A stretch of 64,000 bases of DNA from assembly GCA_942490825.1 (NCBI GenBank), contig CALNYG010000005.1:134240-198239 (forward strand). Reading direction: 5' to 3'. Each line of letters opens with the position of its first letter. Positions within the stretch are counted from its first letter, which is position 1. Of the stretch, positions 7,281 to 63,367 are shown in pieces. Below the pieces are notes generated by a model. That model was not told the DNA's origin, did not search any database, and saw only the letters and a program-made list of their open reading frames with translations. The stretch comes from Candidatus Moraniibacteriota bacterium. Lineage in GTDB: Bacteria > Patescibacteriota > Minisyncoccia > Moranbacterales > GCA-2747515. Made by a program: the position numbers and the translations under genes.

Positions 7281-7345
7281 ATTGTGCCTGTCTGCCCTGC
7301 CTTTGCCGGCAGGCAGGCGAACAGGCAGGCTAGCCGCACGGGCTT
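7281..7345. repeat. GC-rich imperfect hairpin plus a reverse copy of the 19-mer variant
   Basis: GCCTGTCTGCCCTGCC-tttgcc-GGCAGGCAGGCGAACAGGC is followed by GCTAGCCGCACGGGCTT. Confidence 0.6.
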
Positions 7346-7393
7346 TTTAGGCTTAAGATTTTAAACCCCTATAAAATTATGTAAGTCCACAAA

Positions 7394-7528
7394 CATGTCA
7401 TTCCGGAAAATATATTTTCTTTTGTAGAAACGTCGATTTATCGCGTTTTATAGATAGAAAATAATTTATCCGGAATCTATACTATAAGTTTAAAGAAAAT
7501 TTTAAAGTATAATTTTTCAGGATGACAT
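7394..7528. mobile_element. MITE-like element (ATGTCATTCCGGAA ... TTCAGGATGACAT)
   Basis: Terminal inverted repeats. The first ~90 nt match the copy at 8061 with a single mismatch. Confidence 0.6.
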
Positions 7529-8033: not shown

Positions 8034-8060
8034 AAGTTGAGTTATTTTTGAATCTCCAAA

Positions 8061-8266
8061 CATGTCATTCCGGAAAATATATTTTCTTTTGTAGAAACGT
8101 CGATTTATCGCGTTTTATAGATAGAAAATAATTTATCCAGAATCTATATTTTAGGTTTTTTTAAGTCTTAAAGCATAGATTCCGGATAGACTAATTTGTA
8201 TTCAACCTGTCTGTCGGCAGACAGGTCGCTACGCTCTTGAACAAATTATGTCTTCCGGAATGACAT
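8061..8266. mobile_element. MITE-like element, longer copy with a nested GC hairpin
   Basis: CATGTCATTCCGGAA ... TTCCGGAATGACAT. It contains CCTGTCTGTCGGCAGACAGG. It has the same orientation as the 7394 copy, so tsaE is bracketed by direct copies. Confidence 0.6.
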
Positions 8267-19904: not shown

Positions 19905-20075
19905 ATGTCATACCGGAAGACAGAATTTATTCAAGAGTGTAGCGATTGATTTAAATTCATCTATCCGGTATCTATACTGCAAGTTTAAAGAAAACTTAAA
20001 GTTTAAGATTCCGGATAAATTATTTTCTAATTTTTTGCTACGCTCAAAAAGAAAATATATTTTCCGGAATGACAC
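19905..20075. mobile_element. MITE-like element between the two O-antigen-ligase-like genes
   Basis: ATGTCATACCGGAA ... TTTTCCGGAATGACAC. The internal AAGTTTAAAG/CTTAAAGTTTAAG core matches other copies. Confidence 0.55.
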
Positions 20076-20106
20076 GTCTAGAGCACAGAAATTCTTTGAG
20101 AGAAAA

Positions 20107-27005: not shown

Positions 27006-27153
27006 ATTTTAATAATTAATTTAATTATAGTTTCATTTTAGCAAATTGTAGCAAAGAAATCTAGTTTGATGTGTTGACTTTTCGCAAAACTTTTCGTTCA
27101 TCTCCTGAACAAGTAAAAGGTATTAACCCTACAAATTTAGCAACCCCTCCCGA

Positions 27154-27334
27154 CATGTCATTCCGGAAATTTTTTAGGTTTTTTGTAAAAAAATTTAAAA
27201 ATTATCCGGAATCTAGGAAACTTTAAGATTAATGATAAAGTTTAAGTTAAATATCAAATATAATAAAAACGTTATGGAACTAGTTGTAAAACTGGTTCCT
27301 GCAATAGTTTATCTCAAATTTTTCAGGATGACAT
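27154..27334. mobile_element. MITE-like element
   Basis: CATGTCATTCCGGAA ... TTTCAGGATGACAT. It contains the GGAACTAGTT-gtaa-AACTGGTTCC hairpin. Confidence 0.55.
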
Positions 27335-27395: not shown

Positions 27396-27540
27396 AGAGT
27401 TAGTTCAATCGTCCTCGATTGAACTGTTTTTTATTTCAAACTTTAAATTTTATAAAAATAATAAAAAGTTAAAGTAAGCTTTAAATCTTTTGAGTAGAGT
27501 ATGAAAATAAAGGTTCAATCTACAAGATTGAACCAACTCT
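27396..27540 (+). repeat. 145-bp twin-hairpin element, copy A
   Basis: AGAGTTAGTTCAATCG-tcct-CGATTGAAC ... about 95 nt AT-rich ... GGTTCAATCT-aca-AGATTGAACCAACTCT. Near-identical to the copy at 29913. Confidence 0.8.
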
Positions 27541-27545
27541 TTTAA

Positions 27546-27562
27546 AAGCTCGTGCGGCGAGC
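27546..27562 (+). repeat. 19-mer variant AAGCTCGTGCGGCGAGC
   Basis: One mismatch to the consensus. Followed by the GC hairpin CCTGCCTATGTCGGCAGACAG. Confidence 0.7.
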
Positions 27563-27595: not shown

Positions 27596-28183
27596 TTAAA
27601 CTTTTCTTTTTCTCAAATTCAAAATAAAAGCAGTAATCGTTACAATTGTAATTATAACCATTGCCCATAAAGAAAGCTTACTTTCCAAATTATAAGTCTC
27701 ATAAATTCCAGCGGAATAAAAATAGACATACGCCAATCTCTGAATCCTTTTCCAATTCCGTTTCAGCAAAATCATCGAAAAATTATTCGAAGTCACTAAA
27801 AGAATCAATCCCGTAATATCACTCAAATGTGCAAAGAAAATATAATTTTTAAATGACCAATATTCCAGCGTAAAAATAGACAAAAGATAATTTGAATGTA
27901 GAGGAATAATTTTTCCAAACATAAAACCAATAATAATTGACGCAGAAAAAATCCCAAAACTTTTACGCAAAATCACCAGCTTTCTCAACCAAAGTTGCTT
28001 TCTAAAAATATCAGCCAGCGGACGAATTAACATCACAAGAAAAACCGCACCAAAAGATATCCTATACAAAACACTCGTCAAAAAAATATTTTCATCACCA
28101 AAAGCAGTCCACAAAGGCAAAAAGGAAATAATCAATAAAGACACTCCGATAATAAAATTTTGAAATATGCGTAAAGTTTTCAT
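27596..28183 (-). CDS. Ferric-reductase-like (MsrQ/YedZ-type) transmembrane protein
   Basis: 195 aa with 5-6 TM helices. Contains LIRPLADIF and FAHLSDITG...IQRLAYVY patterns. The neighbouring ApbE gene fits a flavin/heme membrane redox module. Confidence 0.5.
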   Translation of the reverse strand: MKTLRIFQNFIIGVSLLIISFLPLWTAFGDENIFLTSVLYRISFGAVFLVMLIRPLADIFRKQLWLRKLVILRKSFGIFSASIIIGFMFGKIIPLHSNYLLSIFTLEYWSFKNYIFFAHLSDITGLILLVTSNNFSMILLKRNWKRIQRLAYVYFYSAGIYETYNLESKLSLWAMVIITIVTITAFILNLRKRKV

Positions 28184-28210: not shown

Positions 28211-28239
28211 GTAGTAAACGGTTTGAAACCGTTTACTAC
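28211..28239. repeat. Perfect hairpin GTAGTAAACGGTT-tga-AACCGTTTACTAC
   Basis: 13-bp stem, related to GTAGGGAACGGTTTGAAACCGTTCCCTAC at 63339. It may terminate apbE on the minus strand. Confidence 0.7.
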
Positions 28240-29888: not shown

Positions 29889-29903
29889 CCGTGCGGCGAG
29901 TAC
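29889..29903 (+). repeat. Truncated 19-mer copy CCGTGCGGCGAGTAC
   Basis: Read directly. It abuts twin-hairpin copy B. Confidence 0.6.
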
Positions 29904-29912
29904 AAGAATTAT

Positions 29913-30057
29913 AGAGTTGGTTCAATCGTCCTCGATTGAACTGTTTTTTTATTTTAAACTTTAAATTTCATAAAATAATAAAAAATTAAAGTAAACTTTA
30001 AATCTATTGAATATGGTATAAACAGAAAGGTTCAATCTACAAGATTGAACCAACTCT
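29913..30057 (+). repeat. 145-bp twin-hairpin element, copy B
   Basis: Perfect 15-nt terminal inverted repeat AGAGTTGGTTCAATC / GATTGAACCAACTCT. Each end is part of a GGTTCAATC/GATTGAACC hairpin. Confidence 0.8.
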
Positions 30058-30062
30058 TTTAC

Positions 30063-30081
30063 AAGCCCGTGCGGCGAGCAC
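30063..30081 (+). repeat. 19-mer AAGCCCGTGCGGCGAGCAC
   Basis: Exact copy. Confidence 0.8.
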
Positions 30082-30155: not shown

Positions 30156-30164
30156 TTATCTTTG

Positions 30165-30237
30165 AGCGGGTGAAGGGAATCGAACCCTCGTCCTCAGCTT
30201 GGAAGGCTGGCATAATAAGCCACTATACGACACCCGC
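30165..30237 (-). tRNA. tRNA-Gly (anticodon UCC)
   Basis: The reverse complement is GCGGGTG-TC-GTAT..AGTGG..-CCAGC-CTTCCAA-GCTGA-GGAC-GAGGG-TTCGATT-CCCTT-CACCCGC-T. It aligns arm for arm with E. coli glyT. CCA is not encoded. Confidence 0.9.
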
Positions 30238-30252
30238 TGTTTTTTTATCTCA

Positions 30253-30954
30253 CTAACCAAAATTGTCAAAAATGATATTTTCTTTGGCAACATTCATTTC
30301 TGTAAGTAAACTTTTCATTGCTTCAATGAATCCTTGAGTACCTACTACATAATATAACGAATTTTTTACTTCGTCAAGATGTTTGTTTATCATTTCACTA
30401 TTTATCCTTCCGCATTCGCCATTCCAATCAGTACAATTTCTGGTCATTGTGTTAATGCATTTGTAATTTTCTAGTTGAAATTCCTCCATTTCTTTGTAAA
30501 GAGCTGCACTTTCGACGTTTCGATTTGAATAGAATAAGGTGATTTTTCGCTCAGATTTTTCAGTTTCTTCTTTTCTTAAAATTGATCGGATGGGTGTTAT
30601 TCCTACACCAGCAGTTAAAAAAACTATTTTTTTATCTTTATCTTCAGGTAAAGTAAAGTTTCCGATTGGACCTTTGATTTTTATTTCTTCACCAATTTGC
30701 ATTGAAGTGATATTTTTTTTGAATGCACTTTCGCTTTCTCGCATTACGAAATTTAAATAATTGTCTTTTGGTGCTGAAGCAAATGACATGGCTCGGAATT
30801 TTGGTTGGTCGTCGGTAAATTTTTCGTTTAGTATTTCTAAAAAGGTATATTGTCCTGCTTGAAATTTGAAATCAGCTGGTTTTTCAAAAGTAAACATCCA
30901 AGTGTTCTCGGCAACTTTTTCTTTTTTATTTAGTTTTACGATGTATTCTTTCAT
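30253..30954 (-). CDS. Ferredoxin-NADP reductase-like FAD/NAD(P)-binding oxidoreductase
   Basis: 233 aa with RAMSFASAP (RxYS-type FAD motif), GPIGNF and FLTAGVGITPIRS (NAD-binding GxGxxP). Confidence 0.8.
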   Translation of the reverse strand: MKEYIVKLNKKEKVAENTWMFTFEKPADFKFQAGQYTFLEILNEKFTDDQPKFRAMSFASAPKDNYLNFVMRESESAFKKNITSMQIGEEIKIKGPIGNFTLPEDKDKKIVFLTAGVGITPIRSILRKEETEKSERKITLFYSNRNVESAALYKEMEEFQLENYKCINTMTRNCTDWNGECGRINSEMINKHLDEVKNSLYYVVGTQGFIEAMKSLLTEMNVAKENIIFDNFG

Positions 30955-33028: not shown

Positions 33029-33044
33029 GATTTATAGACACATA

Positions 33045-33227
33045 ATGTCATGTCATCCTGAAAAATTATTTCATTTTTTGTAAAAAAATTAAAAAATTTA
33101 TTCAGGATCTCAGAAGAATATTATACTTTAAATTTTTTTCTTAAACTTAAAGTGTAGATTCCGGATAAATTATTTTCTATTTCATCGCTACACTCTGAAA
33201 GAAAATATATTTTCCGGAATGACATGT
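33045..33227. mobile_element. MITE-like element
   Basis: ATGTCATGTCATCCTGAA ... TTTTCCGGAATGACATG. Its right half closely matches the right half of the 19905 copy. Confidence 0.55.
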
Positions 33228-38928: not shown

Positions 38929-38947
38929 AAGCCCGTGCGGCGAGCAC
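38929..38947 (+). repeat. 19-mer AAGCCCGTGCGGCGAGCAC
   Basis: Exact copy. Confidence 0.8.
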
Positions 38948-38964
38948 TTTTTTAAAAAACAAAA

Positions 38965-38992
38965 ACTCCACGATTTTTACAAACCGTGGAGT
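38965..38992 (-). terminator. Hairpin terminator for clpC (minus strand), distal to twin-hairpin copy C
   Basis: ACTCCACG-12 nt-CGTGGAGT, with a T-run on the minus strand (TTTTGTTTTTT). Confidence 0.55.
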
Positions 38993-39011
38993 CAAAATAA
39001 AACTTTAAACT

Positions 39012-39177
39012 TAGTTAGTTCAATTGTCCTCGATTGAACTATTTTTTTATACCAAATTTTAAGTTTAGATAATTTTAAAAGTTTACACAACAATCTTTTA
39101 GTTAAAATAAACACCAGGTTCAATCTACAAGATTGAACCAACTGCAAGATTAAACCAACTATAAGATTAAACCAACA
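39012..39177 (+). repeat. Twin-hairpin element, copy C, with a triplicated right end
   Basis: GTTCAATTG-tcct-CGATTGAAC ... GGTTCAATCT-aca-AGATTGAACCAAC, then two further 17-nt units (TGCAAGATTAAACCAAC, TATAAGATTAAACCAAC). Confidence 0.7.
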
Positions 39178-39180
39178 AAT

Positions 39181-41628
39181 TTATTTTTTAACCAAAATCT
39201 TCCCACCTTTCAAATCCAGCTTAATCTCTTTCACACCAATATTCTCAATAATAAACTCAGCCACAATATTTTCAACCTTATCATAAATAACCTTCCGCAC
39301 ACCTCTCGCACCCTCTTTAAATTCAATCGCTTTTCTCGCAATCTCACTCACAACTTTTTGAGAATAAGACAAAACAATATCACGTTTTTTAAGTCTAGTC
39401 TTAAGTTTCAACATTTCATTTTTTGCAATTTCTACAAGACTCGCTTCATTAAGAGAATTGAACACAATCTTGTTATCCAATCGTGAAAGAATTTCCGGAG
39501 AAAGAACCTGTTTGATCTCTTTCAAAACATTTTGAGAAACCATCTTTTCTTTTTTAGCAACATCTCCGCCACCAAAACCTAAACTAGAATTTTCATTGAA
39601 GAATTGATTTCCAATATTTGAAGTCAGAATAATAATACTATGACGGAAATTAATCAATCGTCCCTCACCGTCATGCAAAATACCATCTTCTAAAATTTGT
39701 AAAAGAATATTAAAAACATCAGGATGAGCTTTTTCAATTTCATCAAAAAGAATAACACTGTAGGGATTACGTCGAACTTTTTCAGTTAAAGTTCCGCCTT
39801 CACCATAGCCAACGTAACCTGCTGGTGCACCTACTAATTTAGAAGCTTGATGTTTTTCCATCAACTCACTCATATCCACTCGAATTAAGCTTTCCTCACT
39901 ACCATAAATTTCGCTAGCCAAAGTCTGAGCGGTTAATGTTTTACCAACTCCAGTCGACCCAAGAAATAAGAAAGAGCCATAGGGTCGTTCCTCACTAGAA
40001 ACACCCGTAATTGAACGATTTAAAGTTTGAGTAATTAGTTTTAGAACTTCTTCTTGACCAATTACAACTTTATTTAATTTCTGATAGGTTTTTGCTAAAT
40101 TATTTTCAGGAGTTAAAGAAATTTTTTCATAAGGTATATTTGAAATTAAAGATGTTGTTTGTGCAATATCTTCAATAGTAATTTCTTGTTTTTTACTTCG
40201 TAAATCTTTTTTGACTTTTTCTTGTAAATCAATTAGAACATCAATAATATCTGCTTCCTGCTTTTTAAAAACAGATGCTTTTTTATATTGTCGTGTTCGA
40301 ACGCTTTGTTCCTTTTTAGAAGAGATGTCCTTCAAATCATTTTCTAATTCAACAATTTCTTTTAAAATAGGATTTTTTTCTGTTTTAGAATTTAATCGGG
40401 AAGCTGTCTCGTCTAAAAGATCAATAGCTTTATCTGGTAGGTGACTTTCTTGAATATATCTAACACTCAAATCTACAGCGCTTTTTAAAACTTCTAAACT
40501 TAAAGAAACATGATGATATTTTTCATAAGATTTTCTTAATCCTTTTAAAATAGCTAATGTTTCTTTTGAAGTAGGTTCTTTTAAAACAACTTTTTGGAAA
40601 CGCCTAGTTAAAGCAGGGTCTTTTTCAATATGTTTTTTATACTCATCAAAAGTAGTTGCTCCGATAATTTGAACTAGACCTCGAGCTAAAGCTGGCTTTA
40701 AAATATTAGCTGCATCTAAACTACCTCCAGTATTCCCTGTTCCAACAATAGTATGAATTTCGTCAATAAACAGAATTATATCTGGTCGAGATTCAACTTC
40801 AGCTATAACATTTTTTAAACGTTGTTCAAATTCACCACGAAAACTAGTTCCTGCTACTAAAAGAGCCAGGTCTAGCATTAATATTCTTTTATTATACAAA
40901 TTAGCTGGTGCATCTGGTGAATTAGTTAATTGCGCAATATATTCTACTAAAGCTGTTTTTCCAACTCCTGCCTCACCAATAAGAATTGGATTATTTTTAT
41001 TTTTTCTTCCTAAAATAGCAATAATTCTATCAATTTCATTTTTACGCCCAATAAACGGCTTATTTTCTTTATCTTTATTTAAATCAATACAAAAATTATC
41101 TAAAACACTACTTTGTTCAGATTCCAAGTCATTTGCAGCTAAAGTTAAAGAGCCTAACCCCATTGGCATTCCATTTTGATTGTCAAACATATCTAAATTT
41201 AATTTGTTTTCTATATCGCTCTTTTTTCTCTTACTTTTACTTAGTATTTTTTTAATCTTATTATTCTCTAAATCCAATAAAATATAAGTAAAGTGCTCTG
41301 TTCCTACATAAGGATACCCAAAATTACCTGCTAAAACATAGGCATCAGTAATTATTTCTTTTACAACACCTGATAAATTAGTACTTTTTCTTTCCTTAAT
41401 ACCTTCATCTTTTGAAAAAATAATTTTCTCAAAAATTTCTTTATTTAAGCCTATGTTTTTCAAGATATTATTTCCAACACTTCCTTTTTCTAAAAATATT
41501 CCATATAGTAAATGTTCTGGATTAGTTTCTTTTTCACCATTAGACCTAGCAATAGTTTCTGCTTTTGAAAGGCTGTTTTTAGCATGATCAGTTAACTTAT
41601 CAATAATTGTTGAGGCTTCTTGTTTCAT
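39181..41628 (-). CDS. clpC: ClpC/ClpB-type AAA+ chaperone ATPase
   Basis: 815 aa. Contains a Clp_N repeat and two AAA modules (GEAGVGKTALVE; GSTGVGKTLTAQ). The short middle domain favours ClpC. Confidence 0.9.
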   Translation of the reverse strand: MKQEASTIIDKLTDHAKNSLSKAETIARSNGEKETNPEHLLYGIFLEKGSVGNNILKNIGLNKEIFEKIIFSKDEGIKERKSTNLSGVVKEIITDAYVLAGNFGYPYVGTEHFTYILLDLENNKIKKILSKSKRKKSDIENKLNLDMFDNQNGMPMGLGSLTLAANDLESEQSSVLDNFCIDLNKDKENKPFIGRKNEIDRIIAILGRKNKNNPILIGEAGVGKTALVEYIAQLTNSPDAPANLYNKRILMLDLALLVAGTSFRGEFEQRLKNVIAEVESRPDIILFIDEIHTIVGTGNTGGSLDAANILKPALARGLVQIIGATTFDEYKKHIEKDPALTRRFQKVVLKEPTSKETLAILKGLRKSYEKYHHVSLSLEVLKSAVDLSVRYIQESHLPDKAIDLLDETASRLNSKTEKNPILKEIVELENDLKDISSKKEQSVRTRQYKKASVFKKQEADIIDVLIDLQEKVKKDLRSKKQEITIEDIAQTTSLISNIPYEKISLTPENNLAKTYQKLNKVVIGQEEVLKLITQTLNRSITGVSSEERPYGSFLFLGSTGVGKTLTAQTLASEIYGSEESLIRVDMSELMEKHQASKLVGAPAGYVGYGEGGTLTEKVRRNPYSVILFDEIEKAHPDVFNILLQILEDGILHDGEGRLINFRHSIIILTSNIGNQFFNENSSLGFGGGDVAKKEKMVSQNVLKEIKQVLSPEILSRLDNKIVFNSLNEASLVEIAKNEMLKLKTRLKKRDIVLSYSQKVVSEIARKAIEFKEGARGVRKVIYDKVENIVAEFIIENIGVKEIKLDLKGGKILVKK

Positions 41629-41773
41629 GGTTATATGTATTTAATTCACTTAGATTAATAGGTATTATGTCTTTATTTTAACATATAGTCAAGAATAAAT
41701 CCGTGTTTATTAATGAATTTAAAAACTAATATCAAGATGATTGCCTAAATATTAACCTTCTGTAATCAATTTC

Positions 41774-41782
41774 TGTGGATAA
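41774..41782 (-). promoter_or_regulatory. DnaA box (perfect TTATCCACA on the minus strand)
   Basis: TGTGGATAA read directly, upstream of dnaA. Confidence 0.7.
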
Positions 41783-41816
41783 CTCCTTAATAACTATTAC
41801 TTTACACTTTCATCCC

Positions 41817-41845
41817 TTGCAAAAAATACCCTTAAAGCCTATAAT
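41817..41845 (+). promoter_or_regulatory. Candidate dnaA promoter TTGCAA-17-TATAAT
   Basis: Spacing counted directly. Confidence 0.5.
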
Positions 41846-41892
41846 AACACAATATTTATCTAAAAAATTACAAATCAACTCTATTATAACAG

Positions 41893-41901
41893 TTATCCAC
41901 T
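41893..41901 (+). promoter_or_regulatory. DnaA box (TTATCCACT, one mismatch)
   Basis: Read directly. Relaxed boxes TTATAAACA follow at about 41912 and 41923. Confidence 0.55.
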
Positions 41902-41992
41902 AATACACAGGTTATAAACAGTTTATAAACATTCTCTTTCTTCAATTAAGTGCTATACTTATACTAAATTTCACATTAATCTAAGAAAACCC

Positions 41993-43619: not shown

Positions 43620-44762
43620 ATGATAATTACATGTACGTATGAAAAATTTAGAGAAGCTCTTTTATTTATAGAATCAGCTACAGGTAAAAATTCTAGTCTA
43701 CCAATTATAAATAATATTTTAATTGAAGCAAAAGAAAATCAATTACATTTTTCTGCTACTAATTTGGAAATAGGAGTTATTAAAAGGATTCAAGCTAAAA
43801 TAGAGGAAGGTGGAAGTGTGGTTGTGCCAATACATTTACTTTTAAATTTTTTAACTGCTTTGAGAGGAGAGGAAAATATTAATTTAGAATTAAAGGAAAA
43901 TCAATTAACTTTAAAAAGTGGAGCACATACAACTCAAATTAATAGTTATAATGCAAAAGATTTTCCAATTATTCCTCAAAGTTCCGAAAGAAATTTTTTA
44001 AATTTTAATTTAGAAAATTTTAAGAAAATAATTTCTAAAGTTTTTCCTTTTGTGAGTAGTTTGGAAACCAGACAGGAATTGACAGGTGTTCTTTTTAAAA
44101 TTGAAGATGATAATGTTTATACTGTGGCTACGGATAGTTTTAGATTGGGAGAAAATATTATTTCTAGTAATGATTTAGTAAATAATAAAAATGCTAATGT
44201 TGAATTAAGTGAAGAAAACTTTATTATTTTAACAAAACAGCTTTGTTTGTATATAAATAAAATTGGGGATAATTATAAAGATGTGAATTGTTGTGTGGAA
44301 AATAATCATCTTTTTATTGAATGTGAGGATTTGAGCGTTACTGCCAAACTTATTGATGGCAATTATCCAGATTATAAACAGATTATACCCAGTAGTTCTT
44401 CAACTTTAATCACGGTGAATAAGGCTGAATTTATTGAGGCTTTGAAGGTAACTACGGTTTTTGTTGGTAAGGATAATAAGGAAATATTTTTTGATATTCA
44501 TAATGACAAGATGAAAATTACTACTAAACAACAGGAAAATGGAAGTAGTACTACGGAATTGGATATTTCATTGGATGGGGAAAAGCAAGAAATTGCTCTT
44601 AATCCAAATTATGTTTTGGAGGGTGTTAGAAAAATAAGTGAGGAAGAGATTTCTATTTCGATTAATAATAAAATGACGCCGGTTATTTTTAAGGGTGTTA
44701 GTGAGGGTAAAATTAATGAAAATTTTACTTACTTGGTTATGCCGGTTAAAAGTGCTTCTTAA
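43620..44762 (+). CDS. dnaN: DNA polymerase III beta sliding clamp
   Basis: 380 aa in the position immediately after dnaA. It has a typical three-domain length and N-terminal pattern (LPIINNILIEAKENQLHFSATNLEIG). Confidence 0.9.
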   Translation: MIITCTYEKFREALLFIESATGKNSSLPIINNILIEAKENQLHFSATNLEIGVIKRIQAKIEEGGSVVVPIHLLLNFLTALRGEENINLELKENQLTLKSGAHTTQINSYNAKDFPIIPQSSERNFLNFNLENFKKIISKVFPFVSSLETRQELTGVLFKIEDDNVYTVATDSFRLGENIISSNDLVNNKNANVELSEENFIILTKQLCLYINKIGDNYKDVNCCVENNHLFIECEDLSVTAKLIDGNYPDYKQIIPSSSSTLITVNKAEFIEALKVTTVFVGKDNKEIFFDIHNDKMKITTKQQENGSSTTELDISLDGEKQEIALNPNYVLEGVRKISEEEISISINNKMTPVIFKGVSEGKINENFTYLVMPVKSAS

Positions 44763-59468: not shown

Positions 59469-60020
59469 TTATGCACAATCATTATCGCAAGCAATGCCAT
59501 CTTTATTACCATCACGTCGTGAACAGCCACAAGAATTAAGTTGATACTGAGCTTCTTTACAAGAACTCATTTGAGGACATGTTTTTTTACAATTACATGT
59601 AAAGGAGCTAGTTGATTTTAGATTTGTAATTTTTTCAGCCGCCGCTTTTTCTTTCGTTAATTTTTCAGCCGCCGCTTTTTCTTTTTCAATTTGAGCTGCT
59701 TTTTCTTCTTGTATTTTTTTAAGAGCAACACGTTCTTTTTTTTCTTCCTCTGCTTTTTCTTCCGCTAATTTTTCAGCCTCTGCTTTTTCTTTTTCAATTT
59801 GAGCCTCTTTTTCTTTTTCTTTCGCTAATTTTTCAGCCTCTGCTTTTTCAATTTGAGCCTTTTTTTCTTCTTCCTTTGTTTTTTTATCAATACTACTTTC
59901 TTCTTGTGTATTTTCATTTACAGATGTTGCCTCTACCTGTTTAGTTGGGGTTGGATTTTCACAGGCACTTAAAACTATTGTAAGTAATAATAAAAATATA
60001 ATTTTTTTCATATTTTTCAC
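59469..60020 (-). CDS. Lipoprotein with a K/A/E coiled-coil repeat and a C-terminal Excalibur-like Ca-binding Cys motif
   Basis: 183 aa. Lipobox LLLTIVLSAC. Tandem AQIEKEKAEAEKLAEEK repeats. C-terminal CKEAQYQLNSCGCSRRDGNKDGIACDNDC. Confidence 0.7.
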   Translation of the reverse strand: MKNMKKIIFLLLLTIVLSACENPTPTKQVEATSVNENTQEESSIDKKTKEEEKKAQIEKAEAEKLAKEKEKEAQIEKEKAEAEKLAEEKAEEEKKERVALKKIQEEKAAQIEKEKAAAEKLTKEKAAAEKITNLKSTSSFTCNCKKTCPQMSSCKEAQYQLNSCGCSRRDGNKDGIACDNDCA

Positions 60021-63218: not shown

Positions 63219-63367
63219 GTGCTCGCCGCACGGGCTATGATACATATCCGCAGGGGTTTGTTAGTGGCAAACCCCTACATAATTTTAAGTTTATTGCAGG
63301 GCAGGCACAAGGCACTGCCCCTACAAAATTATACTTCCGTAGGGAACGGTTTGAAACCGTTCCCTAC
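63219..63367. repeat. Repeat island: reverse 19-mer plus three GC-rich hairpins
   Basis: GTGCTCGCCGCACGGGCT (63219-63236); AGGGGTTTG-ttagtgg-CAAACCCCT (63252-63276); GGGCAG-gcacaaggca-CTGCCC (about 63298-63320); GTAGGGAACGGTT-tga-AACCGTTCCCTAC (63339-63367). Confidence 0.75.

Follow-up and report, generated by a model that had tools for sequence, protein, structure and literature searches.

A twin-hairpin repeat in a Moraniibacteriota genome is probably a REP doublet related to hairpins that flank RAYT transposase genes in other bacteria

A 64,000-nucleotide stretch of contig CALNYG010000005.1 from a Candidatus Moraniibacteriota bacterium (the window; positions are counted from its first base) carries three copies of a repeat of about 145 bp with a hairpin at each end, raising the question of what kind of element this is and how it could have spread. 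A first-pass annotation of the sequence located the copies and proposed three readings: a palindrome-associated transposable element (PATE) with IS200/IS605-like ends, a four-site protein-binding module, or an RNA element of 3′ untranslated regions (UTRs). Each copy is probably a doublet of repetitive extragenic palindromes (REPs) of the REPIN (REP doublet forming a hairpin) or BIME (bacterial interspersed mosaic element) type, with two related REPs in inverted orientation and an outer foot of (AGA)GTTG. The annotation did not recognize a described family, which is correct for the specific sequence: literature searches with GGTTCAATCT and GATTGAACC yielded primers and unrelated matches only, and Rfam yields nothing on the element, whether the whole window is searched at gathering scores or the region of copies A and B at E-values up to 10. 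It does not hold for the type, as REPs, REPINs and BIMEs with their REP-associated tyrosine transposases (RAYTs) are well described, and the repeat would thus fall in a known and mechanistically understood class.

The three copies are present at the positions first reported and share one orientation (Table 1); a profile made from them recovers just these three in the 64 kb, with no degenerate extras. Copy B has perfect 15-nt terminal inverted repeats, as annotated (AGAGTTGGTTCAATC / GATTGAACCAACTCT), copy A has a single mismatch (AGAGTTAG...), and the terminal unit common to copies A, B and C is AGTT(A/G)GTTCAAT...ATTGAACCAACT. There is one hairpin per terminus, also as annotated, with GTTCAATCG-tcct-CGATTGAAC at the left and GGTTCAATCT-aca-AGATTGAACC at the right (plus strand). 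The two REPs differ in stem and loop, with 9 bp ending in G and a loop of 4 nt (tcct) on the left, and 10 bp ending in T and a loop of 3 nt on the right, which reads tgt on the strand of that REP; the 28 nt surrounding the right hairpin are identical in all three copies. The reported fourfold occurrence of a 9-mer applies not to the exact GGTTCAATC, which is present three times in copy B and twice in copy A (the other arms are AGTTCAATC), but to the 8-mer GTTCAATC, present four times in each of these copies. The triplicated 17-mer at the right end of copy C is recovered by Tandem Repeats Finder (period 17, 3.1 copies). The spacer between the two REPs is AT-rich and ~85 nt long, placing the hairpin centers 110 bp apart in copies A and B. 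Between copies the ends are 87–100% identical and the AT-rich core 62–85% (Fisher p 0.008 to 3e-5). A 28-nt sequence found exactly three times, within 145-nt copies at 85–100% identity, cannot have arisen by chance.

These hairpins resemble REPs in being stem-loop palindromes (stems of 9–10 bp, loops of 3–4 nt) and in being dispersed extragenically, with six REPs arranged in three doublets, all intergenic, and no singlets in the window. The architecture is that of a REPIN: the outer feet point outwards on opposite strands, and in addition to the two terminal hairpins of the single-stranded DNA there is a minus-strand RNA fold in which outer arms pair with outer and inner with inner to give one long hairpin (−41.6 kcal/mol, z −5.9). 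Both the twin-hairpin and the long REPIN-like folds are far more favorable than those of shuffled sequence (z −5.8 to −7.0). A strong RNA fold and terminal inverted repeats of 12–15 nt are also the attributes that would suggest a small RNA gene, or a classical miniature inverted-repeat transposable element (MITE) moved by a DDE transposase. We give these almost no credence, since the core is too poorly conserved to constitute a conserved RNA body, Rfam has no match, no direct repeat indicative of a target-site duplication was found flanking copies A, B or C, no DDE transposase recurs near the copies, and a small reverse-strand open reading frame (ORF) in Brocadia copies is interrupted in the window. 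The same interruption removes a candidate peptide gene: the reverse strand in Brocadia encodes MRHAKRFGSIVDD, a reading that was rejected because the frame is stopped in the window copies.

The element is not confined to the three sites in the window. A scan of one genome per species (596 Gb) for the right hairpin, GGTTCAATCT-nnn-AGATTGAACC, which has 20 specified bases and an expectation of ~1 chance match, identified at least 120 genome loci; hosts among those listed are Chloroflexota, Brocadiaceae/Scalindua, Syntrophales/Smithella, Nitrospirota, Nitrospinota and Kuenenbacteria. The hairpin occurs in three forms. Form I is the window-type doublet, and 13 Brocadiaceae copies match it in both hairpin types, in their order and in the AGAGTTG outer foot (cAGAGTTG, GTTCAATCG-tcca-CGATTGAAC, ~65 nt, GGTTCAATCT-aca-AGATTGAAC and CAAC); the outer foot covaries among these copies (GTTG..CAAC vs GCTG..CAGC). 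Form II combines a GGTTCAGGCT or GGTTCAGGTT hairpin with an ATCT hairpin 33–56 nt away (start to start), and form III, in Chloroflexota, is a lone palindrome with a 15-bp stem and a highly variable loop. Stem covariation, which the annotation had proposed as a check, is evident in the fetched loci: in an unbiased count of 62 additional GTTCA-N4-loop-N4-TGAAC sites, 47 can pair along the whole of their inner 4-mers, which are of five kinds, and the hairpin is therefore maintained by compensatory change. All of the distinct form-I doublets (22/22) are extragenic and lie mostly toward gene 3′ ends, with only one of the 12 copies for which both neighbors are known located between divergent genes. 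Doublet orientation relative to the upstream gene is not fixed (3 (+,+) vs 4 (−,−)), arguing against an obligate strand-specific 3′-UTR role.

The four-site module could alternatively be a set of double-stranded operator half-sites, forming two palindromes ~110 bp apart that bind a dimeric protein and possibly loop the DNA. The 110-bp centre-to-centre spacing in copies A and B would fit such an arrangement, as would the Chloroflexota form, in which an invariant stem and widely variable loop have the look of half-site, spacer and half-site. This is nonetheless extremely unlikely: spacing ranges from 33 to 110 nt over the family, the sites lie at gene 3′ ends and not at promoters, no gene for a DNA-binding protein recurs beside them (120 loci), and the compensatory inner-stem changes suit a folded hairpin better than a fixed operator. 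The protein-binding reading survives in the looser sense of sites recognized by a protein, most likely, by analogy with characterized systems, as single-stranded hairpins bound by a RAYT.

Two other origins were considered and rejected. A phage origin is not indicated, with just 3 + 3 viral contigs containing either hairpin, and a composite transposon is not indicated either, as hairpin pairs 0.3–4 kb apart enclose ordinary genes. A metagenome scan for long-spacer doublets gave eight loci, all 38–46% GC and none CPR-like (CPR, candidate phyla radiation). The Chloroflexota representatives include an Ardenticatenaceae metagenome-assembled genome, CAZRIB01 (L002, L012, L069, L109, L113, L117), in which the long GGTTCAATCT palindrome is at the center of a ~100-nt repeated unit bounded by inverted ends of its own (AGTACTCAGTCA...); this is a composite miniature element with the REP as its core.

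All-against-all clustering of the ORFs at the 120 loci revealed no protein recurring next to the hairpin; the best cluster comprises 12 loci at a median distance of ~2 kb. RAYT genes emerged only from a directed phmmer search, for which E. coli RAYT and IS200 sequences served as probes, with identities then confirmed by Pfam, NCBIfam and solved-structure searches. The first such ORF, with a weak Y1_Tnp match, is at a Nitrospirota locus (L075) with four hairpins within 2 kb; the gene has GCTGGTTCAATCT-tgt-AGATTGAACC upstream and a disrupted hairpin copy downstream, where the REP is split by a ~130-nt insertion between GTTCAATCTGCAAGATTGA and AGATTGAACCAG (L075 1878–2040). The RAYT family has 488–705 members of ~166 aa, named RayT or REP-associated tyrosine transposase by several sources, with hosts in Nitrospirota, Syntrophales, Brocadiaceae, Kuenenia, Jettenia, Cloacimonadota, Patescibacteria, Moranbacteria, Pacebacteria and Methylobacter. 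In Patescibacteria (L135) the gene lies between GTTGGTTCAATCT-tac-AGATTGAACC and GGTTCAATCT-gca-AGATTGAACCAACTC, with the REP and foot as in the window; in Brocadiaceae (L144) there are twin-hairpin units on either side; in Jettenia (L145) it is flanked by a GGTT stem variant; and in Smithella (L147) by the ATCT form and a second hairpin type. Other CPR genes (L138, L141, L151, L153) are flanked by different hairpins with stems of 10–12 bp and 3-nt loops, those at the AT-rich Pacebacteria locus L151 being twin-hairpin units. The same REP inverted around a RAYT gene, the arrangement known as a REPtron, is thus present at L135, L075, L144 and L147, and wherever the REP flanks a RAYT gene its loop is tgt, tgc or tac on its own strand. 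Across these loci the REP sequence and the RAYT thus vary together, as expected for a REP/RAYT system (PMC6006769).

The flanked proteins distinguish a REP doublet from a non-autonomous IS200/IS605 derivative, or PATE, moved by a dimeric TnpA-IS200 with or without TnpB. Four of them score 97.7, 84.3, 87.2 and 85.6 bits with the REP-associated equivalog NCBIfam NF047646 (cutoff 80), and a single one scores 17.3 bits with the IS200 model NF033573 (cutoff 55); passing the former and failing the latter points to a REP doublet rather than an IS200/IS605 derivative. Among solved structures the proteins match just 4ER8, the E. coli TnpA-REP, at low identity (E 4.6e-7 over ~120 residues) and with their HUH and Tyr motifs in register. 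The motifs LNHIHLI and YI(E/H)xNPVRK are present in the flanked proteins and WQP is conserved, while protein P0055 has P, E and E opposite E. coli E100, H101 and R104. The published account of GTAG recognition counts E100 and H101 among the contact residues (PMC6006769), and their altered counterparts, together with that of R104 and with WQP retained, are consistent with a changed guide sequence. Where seen in relatives the RAYT gene is single-copy among ordinary genes, and no TnpB-like gene lies beside the hairpins in the ORF clustering and gene tables, for which no TnpB profile was run. Hairpin ends without a target-site duplication would fit a PATE, as would the L075 locus described below, where a transposase gene and its hairpins yielded a deletion miniature, which is insertion-sequence behavior rather than that of a fixed REPtron. 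With the protein evidence set against these points a PATE is very unlikely, and the annotation's palindromic transposable element was correct in kind, as the hairpin flanks RAYT genes, but not in its assignment to IS200/IS605.

Locus L075 provides evidence for mobility. It contains a 135-nt twin-hairpin element (771–912) that retains the two hairpins together with ~45 nt from the RAYT leader, the first codons among them, and ~14 nt from the trailer; judged by its sequence, this miniature is an internal-deletion derivative of the RAYT-bearing unit. Further evidence comes from the clpC locus, where copy C is situated. The best named relatives of the window ClpC are from Moraniibacteriota, and two clpC orthologues (~80% identical; L149 and L150) are without the element at the matching site and have no copy within 22 kb and 10 kb. 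In L150 the clpC stop codon is 10 nt from a GC-rich 19-mer that also accompanies the window copies, compared to ~240 nt in the window, where copy C and a terminator hairpin intervene; L149 has neither.

For the REP doublets a mechanism can be proposed by analogy with the TnpA-REP systems of E. coli, Stenotrophomonas and Marinomonas (PMC3333891, PMC8266576). In single-stranded DNA, such as during replication, each REP would fold into a hairpin, and a RAYT (TnpA-REP, of the HUH/Y1 family) would recognize the foot together with the hairpin, cleave nearby via its catalytic tyrosine, and rejoin the strand. Doublets would thereby be copied into new extragenic sites without target-site duplication. 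A partial duplication in L129 is similar to the triplication in copy C, and it may be speculated that these are footprints of aberrant strand transfer.

Several observations weigh against the REP doublet interpretation. The foot is GTT(G/A) in the window, and GCTG in relatives, instead of the canonical 5′ GT[AG]G, which it matches in position and in conservation but not in sequence; moreover, changing GTAG to GTTG in the Stenotrophomonas TnpA-REP system abolished cleavage (PMC8266576). There are only three copies with core divergence of 15–38% and no sign of recent activity. The Y1/RAYT gene that the annotation had suggested seeking is flanked by the same hairpin in relatives, but none is present in the 64-kb window (tblastn E > 1), and none of the best 120 of 488 or the best 120 of 705 RAYT matches is on a contig of 374,420 nt, the size of the window's; a resident RAYT partner for the doublets of this genome is thus putative. 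Finally, the similarity of copies A and B continues for 12 nt and 22 nt outside the inverted repeats and takes in the 19-mer, and these flanks could derive from segmental duplication and not from two independent insertions at like targets.

The GC-rich 19-mer was reported to accompany the copies, and its cores are indeed found at all three (Table 1). Copies A and B both begin 9 nt past it, at ...GCTT(T/G)TAAAAG followed by AGTTGG, a shared junction that fits either a preferred target or duplication of the 19-mer together with the element. The 19-mer, AAGCCCGTGCGGCGAGCAC, is a separate repeat family with nine copies in the window, compared to 0.05 expected by chance, and its 13-nt cores start at 7329, 19872, 27550, 29889, 30067, 33277, 38933, 46488 and 63221. 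It is retained after the clpC stop codon in L150. On the opposite strand it reads GTGCTCGCCGCACGGGCTTTT, a small hairpin followed by a T-run, and on that strand placement as a simple terminator is sensible for only ~5 of the 9 copies. It frequently adjoins other GC-rich hairpins, such as CTGCC..GGCAG and GGTTTGCCACTGGCAAACC.

Table 1. Positions of the repeat copies, their hairpins, the adjoining 19-mer cores and the neighboring genes in the window.
Feature	Position	Strand	Remarks
Copy A, REP doublet	27396-27540	+	left REP 27396-27425; AT-rich spacer 27426-27510; right REP 27511-27540
Copy A left REP hairpin, GTTCAATCG-tcct-CGATTGAAC	27403-27424	+	foot AGAGTTA on 5′ side; T-run after
Copy A right REP hairpin, GGTTCAATCT-tgt-AGATTGAACC	27512-27534	-	foot AGAGTTG at 27535-27540
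19-mer core right of copy A	27550-27562	-	element starts 9 nt after; junction of GCTTTTAAAAG with AGTTGG (minus strand)
ORF beside copy A	27596-28183	-	no Pfam match
19-mer core left of copy B	29889-29901
Copy B, REP doublet	29913-30057	+	perfect 15-nt terminal inverted repeats
Copy B left REP hairpin, GTTCAATCG-tcct-CGATTGAAC	29920-29941	+	foot AGAGTTG 29913-29919
Copy B right REP hairpin	30029-30051	-	foot 30052-30057, CAACTCT on plus strand, 1-base overlap with stem
19-mer core right of copy B	30067-30079	-	same distance and junction as copy A, GCTTGTAAAAG with AGTTGG
tRNA-Gly beside copy B	30164-30237	-
Ferric-reductase-like FAD/NAD oxidoreductase	30253-30954		beside tRNA-Gly
19-mer core left of copy C	38933-38945		~67 nt from the copy
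Terminator beyond copy C	38964-38993		strong
Copy C, REP doublet	39012-39177	+	directly 3′ of clpC stop codon; conserved unit 39013-39143
Copy C left REP hairpin, GTTCAATTG-tcct-CGATTGAAC	39018-39039	+	one stem position mispaired
Copy C right REP hairpin	39117-39139	-
Copy C repeated 17-nt unit, 3.1 copies	39125-39176	-	one partial REP per unit (foot GTTG, 5′ arm, loop)
clpC	39181-41628	-
clpC-dnaA spacer	41629-41992		DnaA-box-like TGTGGATAA and TTATCCAC
dnaA	41993-43390		divergent from clpC
dnaN	43620-44762		follows dnaA

Each copy is 3′ of a minus-strand gene, as annotated, although the gene beside copy A is not the ferric-reductase-like one, which instead lies beside the tRNA-Gly gene near copy B. 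This placement, together with the hairpins themselves, raises the alternative of a mainly transcriptional module, in which inward-facing terminators or 3′-end stabilizers insulate convergent or tandem genes and form part of the clpC 3′ UTR, and similarity to sequences elsewhere is secondary. In all three copies the left hairpin is followed on the plus strand by TTTTTT(T)AT, and the right hairpin is followed on the minus strand by a T-rich tail. Both hairpin types pass a terminator-like scan (9 sites vs 1.4 expected, and 4 vs 0.4 expected), doublets of the family prefer gene 3′ ends, and REPs are known to affect mRNA stability and termination (PMC6006769). It is thus possible that the hairpins act as inward-facing terminators or as 3′-exonuclease blocks for the flanking genes. 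As the primary explanation this is improbable. A terminator requires structure and not a 20-nt sequence that is invariant across five phyla, and the left hairpin of the Brocadiaceae copies lacks the T-run and has CGAAACGTTT in its place. Furthermore, copies A and B are downstream of other terminator-like hairpins, and the terminator noted in the annotation, a stronger one, does lie beyond copy C. The unfixed orientation of the doublets in the family also counts against it, and the link to RAYT genes is left unexplained. The annotated 3′-UTR element thus fits the position of copy C but neither copies A and B nor the family at large. A transcriptional role is compatible with a REP doublet as a plausible secondary, acquired function.

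The clpC, dnaA and dnaN genes are adjacent, and the segment 41629–44762, which contains DnaA-box-like sequences, is likely the replication origin region, although cumulative GC skew has no clear minimum there. With this arrangement at the likely origin, copies A, B and C are all on one side of it. That they all point the same way may be a consequence of the strand bias of single-strand transposition, or of chance (p = 0.25 for three copies).

The window contains a second REP-like family with copies at 28211–28239, 63339–63367 and 1310–1338. Its members are perfect palindromes of 13 bp closed by a loop of 3 nt and bounded by the canonical GTAG foot on one side and its complement, CTAC, on the other (GTAGTAAACGGTT-tga-AACCGTTTACTAC and GTAGGGAACGGTT-tga-AACCGTTCCCTAC, with a diverged third copy, ATAGTGAACGATT-tta-...); the stems differ through compensatory changes. 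The family resembles the REPs flanking the Pacebacteria RAYT in L151 (GGAACGGGTT-aca-AACCCGTTCC), which suggests that two REP families belonging to one RAYT clade are present in this genome.

The window contains further repeats. Six copies of a palindrome, TTGTTCCACGTGGAACAA, occur within 800 bp (968–1750) upstream of an anaerobic ribonucleotide reductase gene and ~40 kb from dnaA; it closely matches the parS consensus bound by ParB, TGTTNCACGTGAAACA. Further intergenic repeat modules of 40–100 nt, 74–96% identical, are located at 7390–7505, 8057–8266, 19945–20077, 27135–27203 and 33030–33227 and contain motifs such as AGATTCCGGATAAATTATTTTCTA and TTTTCCGGAATGACA, which gives the spaces between genes in this small genome the look of mosaics assembled from recurring modules. 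An array of 24–30-nt repeats (TTTTTCAGCCGCCGCTTTTTCTTT...) at 59630–59878 is within a minus-strand ORF (59469–60020) and probably encodes a repetitive protein segment rich in lysine, glutamate and alanine.

REP/RAYT systems have been characterized mostly in Proteobacteria, with REPs that are species-specific, and RAYTs are usually pictured as vertically inherited, domesticated and lineage-specific. The literature search found no paper linking RAYT or REPIN with Patescibacteria or anammox bacteria, and genomes with a RAYT are reported to be larger than average (PMC6006769). The doublets described here would extend the class to a single REP hairpin whose sequence is almost unchanged in Patescibacteria, Planctomycetota, Desulfobacterota, Nitrospirota and Chloroflexota and whose foot is non-canonical, and would provide a natural test case for the rules by which RAYTs recognize foot and hairpin. 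A bolder and rather doubtful proposal is that one REPtron lineage, comprising a RAYT and GGTTCA REPs with a G(T/C)TG foot, still moves as a unit among five or more phyla found together in anaerobic environments such as anammox reactors, sediments and groundwater. In this way doublets would reach even the ultra-small genomes of CPR bacteria, and in the present genome they may persist without a resident RAYT, kept because their inward-facing hairpins serve as terminators or insulators. Cross-phylum movement is supported by RAYT similarity that does not track host taxonomy (the Jettenia and Pacebacteria proteins are 70% identical), and movement as a unit by the L075 miniature, as a deletion copy of the RAYT unit. 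If true, this would contradict the usual picture of RAYTs, and REPtrons may pass between members of one community. On a practical level, such repeats break metagenome-derived assemblies, and their presence or absence could mark strains in CPR genomes.

Among known systems, the window elements are similar to the REPINs and RAYTs of organisms such as Pseudomonas fluorescens SBW25 (PMC3116915, PMC3337134) in being extragenic inverted REP pairs with a spacer, foldable into one long hairpin, with ends better conserved than the spacer and a cognate REP flanking a single-copy RAYT gene (here in relatives). They differ in having a longer, AT-rich spacer (~85 nt), two fixed REP subtypes that differ in stem end and loop length, a G(T/C)TG rather than GTAG foot, and a REP that is near-identical over at least five phyla instead of within one species group. 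The mosaic of two inverted REP subtypes is shared with the E. coli BIMEs (Y and Z REPs), and the TnpA-REP of the E. coli REPtron is the closest solved relative, with HUH, Tyr and WQP motifs conserved (PMC3333891, PMC6006769; 4ER8); however, the stems of E. coli REPs are bulged and their foot is strictly GTAG, whereas the stems here are perfect, and the protein identity is low with E100, H101 and R104 replaced in P0055. IS200/IS605 elements and PATEs have in common the Y1/HUH chemistry, subterminal hairpins on single-stranded DNA and the absence of target-site duplication, but here the associated protein is a RAYT and not TnpA-IS200, no TnpB-like gene was seen, and the gene is single-copy among ordinary genes.

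The group 3 REPtrons are represented by REP-Sm of Stenotrophomonas maltophilia, a perfect 16-nt palindrome with a 3-nt loop directly after GTAG (PMC8266576). The perfect stem, 3-nt loop, foot directly at the stem base and apparent importance of the loop are all shared, while the foot, the 9–10-bp stems and the hosts (CPR, Planctomycetota, Desulfobacterota, Nitrospirota and Chloroflexota) are different. The long ‘double-foot’ REPs of TnpA-Y1 subclass 2.4 (PMC6006769) are similar to the Chloroflexota form, AGATTGGTTCAATCT-nnn-AGATTGAACCAATCT, which has the foot and its complement at both ends and would be produced by central deletion of an inverted REP dimer, and also to the second palindrome family of the window (GTAG...CTAC at 28211 and 63339). 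The 145-bp elements of the window are not collapsed in this manner and keep the full dimer with its spacer.

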